Origin: a virus
Taxonomy: Duplodnaviria; Caudoviricetes
Length of the DNA stretch: 64,000 bases
Strand: one strand, 5' to 3'
IMG/VR virus record: IMGVR_UViG_3300037067_002168
Span: 1 to 64,000 of that record
Shown piece after piece: positions 17,356 to 28,020 of the stretch. How positions within the stretch are numbered: the stretch's first letter is position 1; every line of letters starts with the position of its first letter. The translations under genes and the position numbers were made by a program. Under the pieces are notes generated by a model. That model saw only the letters and a list, made by a program, of their open reading frames with translations, did no database searches and was not told where the DNA came from.

Positions 17356-17553
17356 ATGTTTCGCCTGCATCGTAATTATGATTCGGAAACTGGTAACAGA
17401 GGTATTGAAGCTGTGTCAGTCTGCCTATTCGGTTGTGGCGTGGAGTTACGTTGGCGGTCCGCTGCTGATGGAATCACTCCGCATGTTTGTTTGATTTGGT
17501 GGTTACGCCACCACAGTTGGTGTAAGTCAGTCACGTTTTACGGCGCTGACTAG
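17356..17553 (+). CDS. hypothetical protein
   Basis: AAAGGA RBS; first gene after the promoter. Confidence 0.55.
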   Translation: MFRLHRNYDSETGNRGIEAVSVCLFGCGVELRWRSAADGITPHVCLIWWLRHHSWCKSVTFYGAD

Positions 17554-17607
17554 CCGAAACGGCCTTCGGGCCGTCTGCCAGATTTTACCCACTGGCACTG
17601 ATGAGGC
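17553..17607 (+). ncRNA. hammerhead ribozyme, type II
   Basis: GCC-GAAAC-GGCC-UUCG-GGCC-GUC|UGCCAG-loop-CUGGCA-CUGAUGA-GGC: complete core and three helices. Confidence 0.92.
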
Positions 17608-17630
17608 AGGTTACACAAAGGATACCAAAA

Positions 17631-18017
17631 ATGATTGTTACAAAAGAACAGATTATTAGCGTGAAAACGAAGAAAGAACTCCTTGCACTATCATCTTCCC
17701 ACTGCTCCAACTGCTCCAACTGCTCCAACTGCTCCCACTGCTCCCACTGCTACGACTGCTACGACTGCTTCCACTGCTCCAACTGCTCCAACTGCTCCAA
17801 CTGCTCCCACTGCTCCCACTGCTACGACTGCTACGACTGCTTCCACTGCTCCAACTGCTCCAACTGCTCCCGCTGCTCCCACTGCTCCCACTGCTCCAAC
17901 TGCTCCGATTGTCTGCTGTCTAAGGATTTGGAAAATGCCAGATTCGCTGTTTATAGTGTTATACTCACAGAAAAAGAATACAGAAAAATCGAACAGATTT
18001 ACACGAAAAATACCTGA
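17631..18017 (+). CDS. Cys-rich (CxxCxxC) repeat protein
   Basis: AAAGGA RBS; 23 Cys-x-x triplets encoded by a 9-bp repeat. Confidence 0.7.
   Translation: MIVTKEQIISVKTKKELLALSSSHCSNCSNCSNCSHCSHCYDCYDCFHCSNCSNCSNCSHCSHCYDCYDCFHCSNCSNCSRCSHCSHCSNCSDCLLSKDLENARFAVYSVILTEKEYRKIEQIYTKNT
17703..17912 (+). repeat. 9-bp tandem repeat with a 72-bp higher-order duplication
   Basis: tgctccaac/tgctcccac/tgctacgac units; 17703-17774 equals 17775-17846. Confidence 0.95.
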
Positions 18018-21323: not shown

Positions 21324-21555
21324 CCGCGTAGCTCAGTGGGACGCGGTTAAACCAAACTTGCCGGCCGGGCAGGTCGCTAAAGAACTCAAGTTGACCTTGA
21401 AGCAGGTTTATAATGCGAGAACCACGAATGGTAAGAAGGCCGGCGTGACCTCCGGTTCAGCCACTCAACTTGACGAACGTGACATCGTCGCTATCTCGAA
21501 GATCGGGATAGCCAAGACGGAACGGATACTGAACCTGCTCAAGCGATTGAAGTAG
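21283..21555 (+). CDS. hypothetical basic/DNA-binding protein
   Basis: AAAGGAGG RBS; HTH-like VAKELKLTLKQVYN. Confidence 0.6.
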   Translation: MKRRAKLEKQSIASRVAQWDAVKPNLPAGQVAKELKLTLKQVYNARTTNGKKAGVTSGSATQLDERDIVAISKIGIAKTERILNLLKRLK

Positions 21556-21627
21556 CAGAGGGAGCCAGTCAACTTAGGTTAACTGGCTTAATGCGCTGCC
21601 TACGGTAGGCAACGGTCCCAAGCCCGT
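21555..21627 (+). ncRNA. twister ribozyme, P5-type permutation
   Basis: GCA-GA-GGG-P1 hairpin-UAA-UGC-GC-P3-ACGG-UCCCAAGC-CCGU; P2, P4, T1 and T2 can all pair. Confidence 0.75.
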
Positions 21628-22191: not shown

Positions 22192-23016
22192 ATGCCGATG
22201 ACGTCACTATTTCAGCAGCATCGAAGCAAGTGGTCAAACTGTGATCGGTGCTTACTCTGCTCTCAGAGAACAAACGTGGTGCTCGCTCGCGGTAGAATAC
22301 CTGCCCCGATTCTACTCTGCGGTGAAGCGCCCGGTGTTTCAGAAGACGTTCTCGGTTCTCCGTTTATCGGCCCTGCCGGTAAATTGCTGGATCATATTCT
22401 TGCCAGAGCGATTGACGGACAGTTTGACTATTGTCTGACGAATCTGGTAGGATGTATACCAAGAGTTCCGCCACCAGTCGTCGTCAACATGCGAAAGTCT
22501 GAGTATGATGTTCGTATTGACCGGCAGTCTGAGTGGGGCAACCCGTTCGTCATCGGCAAAGATGGCACTCGATCAGAGGTCATCGACAAGTATGCCGATT
22601 GGTTGCCCATGCAGTTAAAACTGGTCGGCAAACTGCAGTCCCTTGCCGGAAAACGATTGGGCTGCTACTGTTATCCACAGCCGTGTCACGGCGATGTGAT
22701 CGTCAAGTTATTTAGCGAAGTGATCGGCAACGACAAGGTCAGTGAGCCGCCAGAAGAGTCTATCAAAACCTGCTCTGAACGATTGGCTGAGTTTATCTCA
22801 ATCTGTAAACCTAAACTGATCGTCATGGTCGGTAAGTTAGCAGACAAGTGGGTTCCAAGAGTAACAGAACAGATAGAAAGAAGACGGGGAGAGAAGGCAG
22901 TTCAGTGGGCGTCTATCACCCACCCAGCGGCGATACTTCGTATGGATGTCAGTCAACGCGGACTGGCAATTCAGCGGTGCATCGTAACTTTAGAAGACGC
23001 CGTAGCCGAATTATAA
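22192..23016 (+). CDS. udg: family-4-type uracil-DNA glycosylase with inserted DUF4326-like domain
   Basis: CxxC, GEAPG..ED..G.PFIGPAG, TN.V.C, HPAA; insert WGNPF...GKRLGCYCYPQPCHGDV. Confidence 0.85.
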   Translation: MPMTSLFQQHRSKWSNCDRCLLCSQRTNVVLARGRIPAPILLCGEAPGVSEDVLGSPFIGPAGKLLDHILARAIDGQFDYCLTNLVGCIPRVPPPVVVNMRKSEYDVRIDRQSEWGNPFVIGKDGTRSEVIDKYADWLPMQLKLVGKLQSLAGKRLGCYCYPQPCHGDVIVKLFSEVIGNDKVSEPPEESIKTCSERLAEFISICKPKLIVMVGKLADKWVPRVTEQIERRRGEKAVQWASITHPAAILRMDVSQRGLAIQRCIVTLEDAVAEL

Positions 23017-23051
23017 ATAGCCCTCGAAAAATAGTTTATAATAGTAGAGTT
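23011..23051 (+). promoter_or_regulatory. promoter-like 41-bp direct repeat, copy 1
   Basis: TATAAT at 23037-23042; 37/41 identical to 25023-25063. Confidence 0.75.
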
Positions 23052-23084: not shown

Positions 23085-23768
23085 ATGTCTAAGAAAATTG
23101 CTGCTAGTTCTCCGCAAGACGACAATCAAAGTAAACCGCATTTAATTAGCATCCCGCCTCTCATGCAGGCCGAGATACACCTAGTCTTAGTTGGAGATAG
23201 GCCATTACTGGTTAATAACAAGTTGGCCGTAGCTGAAGAATTGGATGCAACTTATGGCCCTGGTGCTAGAAGAACAGTACCCAAGGCTCCACCAACGCCG
23301 GAGGAATGCTACATAAGGTCCTTTTATGTATTGCCTGATAGCAAGTATGCTGCTCCCAGTCTAAAGGCGCGTTACGGAGTACCGTGTAGTGGTATCAAGA
23401 AATGTGCTTGCTCAGCGATTCGCAGCACTGGTATTACCGACAATACAACTGTTGGACTGATACAACGGTCATTTTGGGTACTGGAAGACAGTGGTGGATT
23501 ATGCTTACTCCAGTTCAAACGACTGGAACACGACGTAAGAGCGGTCAATATTGGTAGTGGGCAGAAGACGGTGCCACGCATGGCGCATCGGCCAATTTTC
23601 TTTGATTGGCGAATCAACATTCGCATCAAATACAACCCACTGACGTTATCTCCAGAGACATTGTTTAACTTATTCATGTACGCCGGTCAATGTATTGGCC
23701 TTTGCGAGTTACGTGCTGAGAAAAAGCAAGGTCAGTGTGGTGGATTCATCGTCGAAGCTGGTAAGTAG
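23085..23768 (+). CDS. RAMP/Cas7-like protein (candidate RNA-guided effector)
   Basis: L.GDRPLLVN start, YGVPCSGIKK, RPIFFDW, C-terminal Gly-rich loop AGQCIGLCELR...GQCGGF.V; directly followed by a pentamer array. Confidence 0.65.
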   Translation: MSKKIAASSPQDDNQSKPHLISIPPLMQAEIHLVLVGDRPLLVNNKLAVAEELDATYGPGARRTVPKAPPTPEECYIRSFYVLPDSKYAAPSLKARYGVPCSGIKKCACSAIRSTGITDNTTVGLIQRSFWVLEDSGGLCLLQFKRLEHDVRAVNIGSGQKTVPRMAHRPIFFDWRINIRIKYNPLTLSPETLFNLFMYAGQCIGLCELRAEKKQGQCGGFIVEAGK

Positions 23769-23771
23769 CCT

Positions 23772-23962
23772 ATCTGTATTGGCTCGGAAAGGATCGGAGT
23801 GGAATAGAGTAGACAGGAACCGCTGTACCGGAGAGGAAAGGAAATGACAAGAATGGACTGGACCTGCTGTAACGGAGTGGAAGGGCGAGGATTGGCATGG
23901 AACGGAGCAGAACTGCCGTAGTGGATCGGATTGGACTGGGATGGAAAGTAGTGGAACCGCTG
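23772..23962 (+). repeat. non-coding punctuated GGA-NN pentamer array, four units (putative guide RNAs)
   Basis: 7-8 mostly RGA-NN pentamers per unit, separated by C-YGCYG-TANN; stops in all three plus frames. Confidence 0.85.
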
Positions 23963-23976
23963 GAAAGGAAAATCAA

Positions 23977-24540
23977 ATGCCAAAACTGAAATTTGAGTAT
24001 AAAAAAGTTCTGTCAGAAAACTTACGTTACGGCAACAAAAAGCAACGTGAAGCGTTACTCAAGTGGTCTAACCAAAAGAAGTTTGACGGACGTAAACCAA
24101 CGCCAGATGAATTGACATCCGAATGTCTACGTAAGAGTAGTCCGTTATTTGGCCTGATGAAATCAGATGTAAAATCGGCTGCAATGGTATATTGGCGACA
24201 GACAGCTCAGGATATTATTCGTCATATCAATGTTGTGAAAGTCAACATTTATACGAAAGAAATATCGAAGCCTGTCGTAGCTTTCTTGCATATCAAGCGA
24301 GAACAGTGTGGACGAATCTCCGAAAAAAATTATGTCCCTGCTGACAGAATTATGGAAAATCCATTACTACGGCAGAACATTTTAGAACGCGCTCACGGTG
24401 ATTTTTTGGCATGGATGCAACGGTACGAGAGATATTCTGAGTTCTTAGAGGAGTTTTCACCTGTCTTAGATGCGTACCAAAAAGTGTGCAAGTCAATAAA
24501 CCAGAAACCAAAGAAAGTCAAATCAAAGAGAATAGCATGA
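23977..24540 (+). CDS. basic hypothetical protein associated with the RAMP-array locus
   Basis: PTPDEL...SPLF...D..SAA..Y.RQ.AQ.II motif; starts right after the array. Confidence 0.7.
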   Translation: MPKLKFEYKKVLSENLRYGNKKQREALLKWSNQKKFDGRKPTPDELTSECLRKSSPLFGLMKSDVKSAAMVYWRQTAQDIIRHINVVKVNIYTKEISKPVVAFLHIKREQCGRISEKNYVPADRIMENPLLRQNILERAHGDFLAWMQRYERYSEFLEEFSPVLDAYQKVCKSINQKPKKVKSKRIA

Positions 24541-25028
24541 TTCGTAGAAAGTTCTTACAGTTACTGTCGTTGGCTGGAGTTACTATCCCAGTAAAATTAG
24601 CCACTGGTAGCATACTACCGATGGGGCAAGTTACTACGTCCTGGAATGATCAGAATGGGTGGATACCCACTTCAAACCAATTACCAGAAACAATCATACA
24701 ATACGGCCCAGTTATTCGAGTTTCAAAAAGAGTGTTGTTACTACACTGGTCAGGATCGGGGTACCAACGTAAGTTTGAATACCAAAACAAAGTTACAGAT
24801 CGATATTCAGTAAGTACAGGTAGACTGATTACCTATCAATATGACGACGTTACAATTGGTCTTGCAGACGTTATACCATTACTCGATTATCGAAAACCCT
24901 GGTGGCTTATAGATACAATACAGCATCCGAAGTTTACAGATAAGGATAGGTTAGTTCTCTCATCCGCCGTGCAACTAAATCTAAGCCATGTTAAATGTTG
25001 GCGGCCTTATTTTTGCCCAGAGTTATAA
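24537..25028 (+). CDS. hypothetical protein with Tat-like N-terminus
   Basis: MIRRKFLQLLSLAG; ATGA coupling. Confidence 0.55.
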   Translation: MIRRKFLQLLSLAGVTIPVKLATGSILPMGQVTTSWNDQNGWIPTSNQLPETIIQYGPVIRVSKRVLLLHWSGSGYQRKFEYQNKVTDRYSVSTGRLITYQYDDVTIGLADVIPLLDYRKPWWLIDTIQHPKFTDKDRLVLSSAVQLNLSHVKCWRPYFCPEL

Positions 25029-25063
25029 ATAGCCCCTGGAAAATAGTTTATAATAGTAAAGTT
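25023..25063 (+). promoter_or_regulatory. promoter-like 41-bp direct repeat, copy 2
   Basis: TATAAT at 25049-25054; matches 23011-23051. Confidence 0.75.
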
Positions 25064-27788: not shown

Positions 27789-27792
27789 CAAG

Positions 27793-28020
27793 ATGCTTGT
27801 GTTATCCCGAAAAAAGAACGAAAGTATTGTCATCAATGATGACATTACAATCATGGTTGTGGAAATCCGAGGGGACAAGGTCCGTTTAGGAATCGACGCC
27901 CCCAAGGAAATGCCAGTACATAGAAAAGAAGTTTACGACGCGATCCATCGTAGTAATCCTGCCGCTGAGAAAGTCGTAGTCGAAACTGATGCAGAGATAG
28001 TTAGTCGCTCTGGCTATTGA
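27793..28020 (+). CDS. csrA: carbon storage regulator CsrA
   Basis: MLVLSRKKNESIVINDDITIMVVEIRGDKVRLGIDAPKEMPVHRKEVY. Confidence 0.96.
   Translation: MLVLSRKKNESIVINDDITIMVVEIRGDKVRLGIDAPKEMPVHRKEVYDAIHRSNPAAEKVVVETDAEIVSRSGY

Follow-up and report, generated by a model that had tools for sequence, protein, structure and literature searches.

The window analysed here is a stretch of 64,000 nucleotides, positions 1-64,000 of the 88-kb record of an uncultivated phage from groundwater (Caudoviricetes; IMG/VR record IMGVR_UViG_3300037067_002168). On its plus strand, an open reading frame (ORF) of 227 codons plus stop (23085-23768) is followed by a purine-rich tract of 191 nt (23772-23962), whose first base lies 3 nt after the stop codon and which is made up of pentamers, and then by a gene for a protein of 187 amino acids. 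A first-pass annotation, made from the letters of the DNA, had read the ORF and the tract as a RAMP-family gene with an array of guide RNAs, and had likened them to VIPR (Viral Interference Programmable Repeat) with a GGA core in place of the published GGY. The likeness has proved sound: VIPR is a published system, and by profile and by fold the protein is a homolog of its effector, Vipr. We describe here the gene, the array and their relatives, and weigh what the locus is likely to do.

VIPR, published in 2026, is a CRISPR-related, RNA-guided silencing system carried by viruses; seven types are distinguished, with variable array architectures and with accessory genes named vap1-6 (bioRxiv 10.64898/2026.04.26.720920, 10.64898/2026.04.26.720927). 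Its Vipr protein, a RAMP, binds guide RNAs (vrRNAs) in which 9-16 GGY-NN repeats precede a structured tail, with one protomer on each repeat; the two variable bases (NN) pair with double-stranded DNA, on either strand, every third target base being skipped, and natural targets are wobble-aligned and lie in genes of competing phages and satellites (bioRxiv 10.64898/2026.04.26.720920, 10.64898/2026.04.26.720927). Type II is exemplified by Escherichia phage SUSP1 and a Pseudomonas fulva prophage (bioRxiv 10.64898/2026.04.26.720920, 10.64898/2026.04.26.720927, 10.64898/2026.10.15.759431). We checked the canonical layout in two GenBank phages, a Felixounavirus and LESphi2, and found that each guide stands by itself, consists of 10-12 GGY-NN units and ends in a tail of ~40 nt.

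The Vipr homolog and its pentamer array

The 227-amino-acid protein matched no family in Pfam, and in PHROGs it matched only a family without a name. A word-indexed search returned 72 homologs with 47-67% identity, mostly from metagenomic contigs and none of them named. When the single sequence was searched against the PDB, the top match was the Vipr of SUSP1, at an E-value of 0.31. A profile built from 30 sequences of the family (A1) matched the same protein (PDB 36pp) with an E-value of 7e-5, and comparison of profiles by hhalign gave a probability of 94% for the Felixounavirus Vipr. An AlphaFold (AF2) model made from the family alignment had a mean pLDDT of 86. Its top Foldseek matches were Csm3 (type III-A) and Cas7 of types VII, III-D and III-E, with E-values of ~1e-5, and structural comparison with Csm3/Cas7 in VIA gave Z scores of ~12 over ~160 residues. 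These matches agree with the first-pass description of the gene as Cas7/RAMP-like.

In a full-length alignment with two type II Vipr proteins and several intermediate clades, residues G37, Y81, R169, W175, A200, G201, G205, R210 and G219 were invariant. The thumb arginine, R169, aligned to R138 of SUSP1, residues E208, L209 and R210 of the G-loop aligned to D177, W178 and R179, and N44 aligned to H17. The C-terminal glycine loop singled out in the first pass is indeed a stretch that contains this G-loop. An exhaustive profile search found 3,065 cluster representatives at E <=1e-3, nearly all of which carry the G-loop signature AG...G..[ED].R, but only ~10 of them at E <1e-60. The clade to which the protein belongs therefore forms one small branch within a superfamily of very large size.

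The tract downstream of the gene was parsed into four units set apart by punctuation of the form N-GCYG-TA-NN, present in three full copies (Table 1). The first pass had arrived at the same four units and at YGCYG-type punctuation, its units each including the separator before them. Autocorrelation of the array peaked at lags of 5, 44 and 49 nt, and adjacent GGA..GGA pairs numbered 10, against a maximum of 5 over 10,000 shuffles; no comparable pentamer score was found elsewhere in the window. One GGA-rich stretch on the minus strand, at 17700-17900, was considered as a second array and rejected as a 9-nt coding repeat. It coincides with the long 9-nt tandem repeat, at ~17700-17900, of an ORF at 17601-18017 (+), which is unrelated to the vrRNA array. 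The proposal that the first three positions of the pentamer are nearly constant and the last two free is upheld by the periodicity and by the logo of the clade given below, but only in part by the window, where 20 of the 30 pentamers start with GGA and the other 10 with AGA, TGA, GGC, GGG or GTA.

An Rfam scan of the array found no family. No CRISPR-like repeats were seen near the locus, where the only periodicity is that of the pentamers and the neighbouring genes are those of replication. The tract is thus not a class 1 CRISPR-Cas array, as the first reading had also held.

Table 1. Features of the locus and of the cassette that contains it, in window coordinates
Feature	Position	Strand	Basis or remark
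41-nt direct repeat, copy 1, promoter-like, upstream of vipr	23011..23051	+	Repeat comparison; TATAAT at 23036-23041
vipr gene, 227 aa, single-RRM RAMP (Cas7-like)	23085..23768	+	Profile, hhalign, AF2 model, structural matches
Separator-like leader opening the array, 3 nt past the vipr stop	23772..23780	+	CTGTA core as in the separators; relatives' arrays open likewise
Guide unit 1, 8 pentamers	23781..23820	+	
9-nt separator (5+4 nt), pentamer phase moved by one	23821..23829	+	
Guide unit 2, 7 pentamers	23830..23864	+	
9-nt separator	23865..23873	+	
Guide unit 3, 8 pentamers	23874..23913	+	
9-nt separator	23914..23922	+	
Guide unit 4, 7 pentamers	23923..23957	+	
Terminal half-separator CGCTG, array end	23958..23962	+	Same truncation point in window, L001, L002 and L003
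Partner gene, 187 aa, vap-like accessory (putative)	23977..24540	+	Adjoins vipr and array in 6/6 relatives, 23-49% identity
Cassette ORF, twin-arginine-like N-terminus (RRKFL, then hydrophobic stretch)	24537..25028	+	Translation only; no family match; not conserved in related loci
41-nt direct repeat, copy 2, closing the 2,012-bp cassette	25023..25063	+	Repeat comparison

Related loci and the variable dinucleotides

Whether pentamer arrays follow homologs of the gene was a point on which the first-pass reading had been made to depend. We examined six related loci from IMG/VR viral metagenome contigs, with Vipr identities of 38-64%. All six contained the trio of vipr, pentamer array and partner gene, and in all six the array shared the strand of vipr and followed it directly; in some, a second array preceded vipr or came after the partner. 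Units in the five closest loci comprised 4-20 pentamers and were set apart by 9-nt separators, GGCYGTARY or GGACGTAAY, and the last one or two pentamers of a unit were often constant. The separators of the window start with C or T where those of the relatives start with G. The relatives' arrays were cleaner than that of the window and much longer, reaching 15-20 units of 10-12 pentamers. In the window and in the three relatives named in Table 1, only the first five bases of the final separator were present.

A logo compiled over 731 pentamers of the clade gave G in 95%, G in 99% and A in 97% at the first three positions, followed by two positions at which all 16 dinucleotides occurred. With A as the third base in 97% of its pentamers, the clade departs from the canonical GGY motif. 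The accessible text of the VIPR discovery paper allows for repeats of a "related consensus", and the GGA core therefore bars the locus from the canonical type and not from the VIPR family.

The two loci L002 and L003 have flanks that are 94-100% identical, yet their arrays, of 20 and 15 units, have no more than three identical units in common. It therefore appears that guides turn over much faster than genes. The same pair answers the question, raised in the first pass, whether the variable dinucleotides might be invariant among relatives; they are not.

A survey of ~110 further Vipr loci placed these arrays in a wider setting. GGC or GGT cores were found in a large clade with a G[IV]GEWR G-loop, and GGA cores in several clades with GLCE[LMYF]R G-loops, some of which have 4-nt GGCA separators (L006, L028, L044). 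A sister Vipr clade (L026:2420-2700, L027:1095-1620) has GGC-NN units set apart by 9-nt GGCAGTCNN separators, which follow the same 5+4 plan as those of the window in another sequence. Both this GGC-NN clade and the GGA/GGCA clades resemble the present one in their short, phase-breaking punctuation and abutting units, and some of them in the GGA core; they differ from it in the sequence and length of the separator, in the G-loop and in the helix-1 residues. Beside the Vipr homologs of two further IMG/VR contigs (L045, L051), CGA-NN was the dominant core, with 21 phased triples in each; this is another non-GGY variant. As GGA occurs in several clades, it is a recurrent natural variant and is not unique to this phage. 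The suggestion of a distinct GGA variant thus stands for the clade and fails for the single phage.

To examine the variable dinucleotides we used 532 NN from 66 distinct units of five related contigs (L001-L005; e.g. L002:2765-4060), with the constant end pentamers excluded. Their frequencies correlated with the reverse complement of codon positions 1-2 with r 0.86 (permutation p 5e-5, bootstrap 0.73-0.89), and with r 0.65 after the base marginals had been removed. Each of the four large arrays, taken alone, gave r 0.67-0.74 with the same reverse complement. Other phases and transformations gave r of at most 0.61, and the sense orientation gave -0.17. When canonical GGY arrays from ~80 loci (L053-L132) were called in the same way, the correlation was 0.43 in the sense orientation and 0.06 for the reverse complement. 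The NN distributions of the GGA clade and of the GGY arrays were related to each other with r 0.54 by reverse complement and 0.10 directly. The other GGA clades were without such a signal. The variable dinucleotides of this clade thus mirror the reverse complement of codon positions 1-2. This is in keeping with the wobble-skipping code as published, except that the strand polarity is the reverse of that in GGY arrays.

Targets were then sought directly. The first pass had proposed a search with gapped patterns of the variable dinucleotides; when it was run at skips of 0-3 nt with the four guides of the window against the whole 88-kb contig, the array itself was the sole match. For ~64 guides of the clade against the locus sequences of the relatives, and for ~50 distinct ones against complete related contigs amounting to 250 kb, the best matches were equally good whichever skip rule was applied. 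Long guides also supplied exact seeds with a 1-nt skip and 20-22 specified bases, which had no match in viral contigs (two seeds) or in metagenome contigs (two seeds). A 16-base seed gave seven matches, which were chance-like and several of which contained in-frame stops. Guides written as degenerate peptides matched none of 86 Vipr and partner proteins. These searches are weak, because they demand an exact match and because the guides of the window are short, with 14-16 specified bases.

Partner gene, cassette and neighbourhood

The partner gene is the sole neighbour conserved across the six related loci, and 14 further homologs of it were found. Its product matched phrog_15946, a PHROGs family of unknown function. 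No Pfam family was found for it and nothing in a PDB sequence search; its fold had no Foldseek match at E<0.001, and a wide VIA search yielded only helical hairpins with Z <=5. It had no similarity to the genes beside the two type II Viprs of the Felixounavirus and LESphi2. The 187-amino-acid partner is best explained as a clade-specific accessory.

The vipr gene, the array, the partner gene and one further ORF lie between two direct repeats of 41 nt. The repeat occurs nowhere else in the 88-kb contig. Its two copies agree at 37 of 41 bases and have sharp ends; both begin inside the last codons of the preceding ORF and contain TATAAT. A scan with a promoter consensus did not call the 41-nt repeat, which we nevertheless take to be a putative promoter. 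Two promoters in succession would account for the arrangement, and so would a cassette that has been moved through recombination between elements of this sort.

The cassette is set in a phage replication module with genes for a helicase, a uracil-DNA-glycosylase, a PD-(D/E)XK nuclease and Sak4, and without cas genes. The gene upstream of vipr (22192-23016, +) belongs to the uracil-DNA-glycosylase superfamily and has an inserted DUF4326. A small ORF at ~27790-28020 (+), just after the Sak4-like gene, appears CsrA-like by its translation. Two self-cleaving ribozymes were also found: a twister ribozyme of type P5 at 21554-21627 (+), with an Rfam score of 43.8 bits against a gathering threshold of 37.6, lies 1.5 kb upstream of vipr, and a type II hammerhead ribozyme at 17552-17615 (+), with 42.1 bits against 37, lies 5.5 kb upstream. 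Both are in the same plus-strand early gene block as vipr and outside the array. In published VIPR of types I and V, hammerheads are located within the arrays.

A landfill metagenome from a different study contained a sequence identical to the window over the 3' half of vipr, the array and the start of the partner gene. On a landfill contig of run X3, a third sample, matched at window positions 23728-23746 and 23963-23983, ~3.8 kb appears to separate the vipr end from the beginning of the partner gene, as against 0.2 kb here. The wide gap suggests that this relative has a very long array.

A probable VIPR locus with GGA-NN guides and its alternatives

We conclude that this is very probably a VIPR locus, from a clade whose guides are spelled GGA-NN and not GGY-NN. 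Homology, fold, the architecture and conservation of the array, and the turnover of guides between relatives support this directly. VIPR is a known kind of system; what differs here is the GGA core, the compact 9-nt punctuation and a partner gene of the clade's own.

By analogy with the published system, the locus may work as follows. The array would be transcribed together with vipr from the promoter-like repeat upstream, since it starts only 3 nt after the vipr stop. One Vipr protomer would bind each pentamer; R169 of the thumb and E208 and R210 of the G-loop would hold the two guanines, and the next protomer would pocket the third base. The exposed NN would pair with the target, every third base being skipped, so that codon positions 1-2 are read, and a gene of a competing mobile element would be silenced. 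Because the separators, with their 5+4 nt, break the 5-nt register, they would end one filament and start the next, and they are probably also the site of processing. The truncation kept at the last separator suggests cleavage after its fifth base, in which case the mature guides would have the form (UANN)-(GGANN)n-(NGCYG).

Type II VIPR is like the present locus in having a single-RRM RAMP with a thumb arginine and a G-loop, pentamers of three constant and two variable bases adjoining the gene, and a minimal phage locus of two genes that lacks both cas genes and a CRISPR array; the NN composition found here is also consistent with its wobble-skipping code. It is unlike it in four respects: its third base is a pyrimidine and not A, its guides are separate and tailed whereas here units abut, with 9-nt separators and no fold, its partner gene is unrelated, and the guide strand polarity that the NN composition points to here is the opposite one. 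Also similar are the "staggered arrays" mentioned in the discovery paper, with vrRNAs of the alternative consensus NNNGG, YNNNG or NNNNG, and the non-canonical 5-mer cores GAC, CAC, WGT and TGH (bioRxiv 10.64898/2026.10.21.760802). They share with the present array the tight packing, in which each guide begins where the one before it ends, and a triplet other than GGY. Neither GGA-NN nor the 9-nt GGCYGTARY punctuation is named in the accessible text of the published VIPR papers, figures aside.

Among solved structures, Csm3 and Cas7 of types III and VII match the protein best, and the RRM, thumb and G-loop are common to both. The backbone subunits Csm3 and Cas7 polymerise along the guide RNA at a fixed register. 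That register, however, spans 6 nt, the spacer being contiguous and one base flipped, whereas the register here is 5 nt long and would sequester three bases; CRISPR repeats, Cas10 and other cas partners are absent from the locus, and the PDB searches detected no sequence similarity to these subunits.

Several observations weigh against a working VIPR locus with GGA guides. In SUSP1 the change of GGY to GGA abolishes silencing, as do changes in the constant triplet, the pyrimidine pocket sterically excluding purines. The GGA content of the window's array, 67%, compares with ~91% in the relatives. The folding of the array was no better than that of shuffled sequences (z +0.74), which leaves it without excess structure and without a structured 3' tail. 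No target was found for any guide, and the skip rule was not demonstrated in this clade. The NN composition is indirect evidence, obtained from five related contigs, and the window itself, with 20 usable NN, supplies too few to show the signal.

The obstacle posed by the pyrimidine pocket might be met by a change in the protein. Residues E71 and M72, the helix-1 part of the pyrimidine pocket in the SUSP1 Vipr, to which the exclusion of purines is ascribed, align to an invariant pair, S102-G103, in the protein studied here, and Ser-Gly in place of Glu-Met could make room for an adenine. This argument is a lead only, because the alignment to SUSP1 in helix 1 is at ~22% identity and because Gly is found at the same position in some GGY clades. 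A simple rule by which Gly at the helix-1 position would go with a purine in the repeat was rejected, since Ile-Gly and Val-Gly co-occur with GGC and GGT arrays.

Of the alternatives, one grants that the cassette is genuine VIPR and holds that the array of the window is a decaying remnant, protein and partner being intact while the guides no longer assemble filaments or have lost their targets. The low share of GGA (20 of 30 pentamers), the loss of the first G from the separators, the 15-20 clean units of 10-12 pentamers reached by relatives, and the near relative that appears to have ~3.8 kb between vipr and partner as against 0.2 kb here all favour such decay. Yet the identical array recurs in the landfill metagenome of a different study, AGA units occur also in the relatives' clean arrays, and the frame of units plus separators is fully kept. 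Degeneracy within vrRNAs is moreover frequent according to the accessible text of the discovery paper, which describes them as often internally degenerate, and a natural SUSP1 guide acts through a footprint of 18 bp, that is, six units. We hold a remnant to be unlikely. Short guides of 7-8 units and degeneracy in a third of the pentamers may make this array less effective than those of the relatives; given the six-unit footprint of SUSP1 and the frequency of degenerate vrRNAs, its function is plausible and not assured.

A bolder proposal is that the clade with GGA and 9-nt separators is a mechanistic variant, its guides being complementary to the coding sense strand and reading mRNA or one DNA strand, and its Ser-Gly third-base pocket accepting a purine. 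We consider this doubtful as a whole. Its central component, namely that the GGA clade recognises RNA (mRNA) or a single DNA strand, with guides systematically antisense to coding sequence, also stands as an explanation by itself, and an improbable one. The correlations of NN argue for it, at 0.86 by reverse complement and -0.17 in sense as against 0.06 and 0.43 for GGY arrays, and the nearest solved folds are those of RNA-targeting Csm3 and Cas7 of types III and VII. These correlations, however, concern composition, with no target identified, in arrays of five related contigs that are not independent. The antisense polarity could be due in part to local sequence constraints, such as a preference for C before the next GGA, or GATC. 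Moreover, other GGA clades give no such signal, and published VIPR binds double-stranded DNA on either strand.

The pentamers might instead act as DNA, as iterons or protein-binding sites for replication or partition. The setting of the array within a replication gene block would suit this role, but the arrays are always found beside a RAMP, of which a homolog has been solved bound to such RNA, they lie on the gene strand in every locus, other neighbours are not conserved, and free variation at two of five positions with turnover of units is unexpected for iterons; we regard this possibility as very remote. That the stretch encodes, on one strand or the other, a hypervariable repeat protein, or is a simple repeat that arose by chance, can be practically dismissed: although ORFs of 83 and 68 amino acids span the array on the minus strand in a mechanical ORF listing, they are a by-product of composition, since no stop codon can arise in the reverse complement of GGANN, stops are present in all three plus frames over 23769-23976, as the first pass had noted, unit lengths of 5n+9 are not multiples of three, and no shuffle nears the observed periodicity.

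A VIPR locus with GGA-NN guides thus remains the preferred reading. The concept of VIPR dates back only months, and what has been characterised is essentially a single type. A clade in nature that uses a triplet which abolishes silencing in the model system, and that packs up to 20 guides into one array, defines how the code between protein and RNA can shift. A shifted recognition code would be useful for orthogonal programmable silencers, and an array punctuated by 9 nt is a compact format for multiplex guides. If the strand polarity suggested by the variable dinucleotides is true, VIPR clades differ in the strand or the nucleic acid that they read, which would be relevant to the proposal that CRISPR RAMPs descend from Vipr. 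For this phage, the locus would be one more weapon in conflicts between viruses, in a genome that also carries self-cleaving ribozymes.

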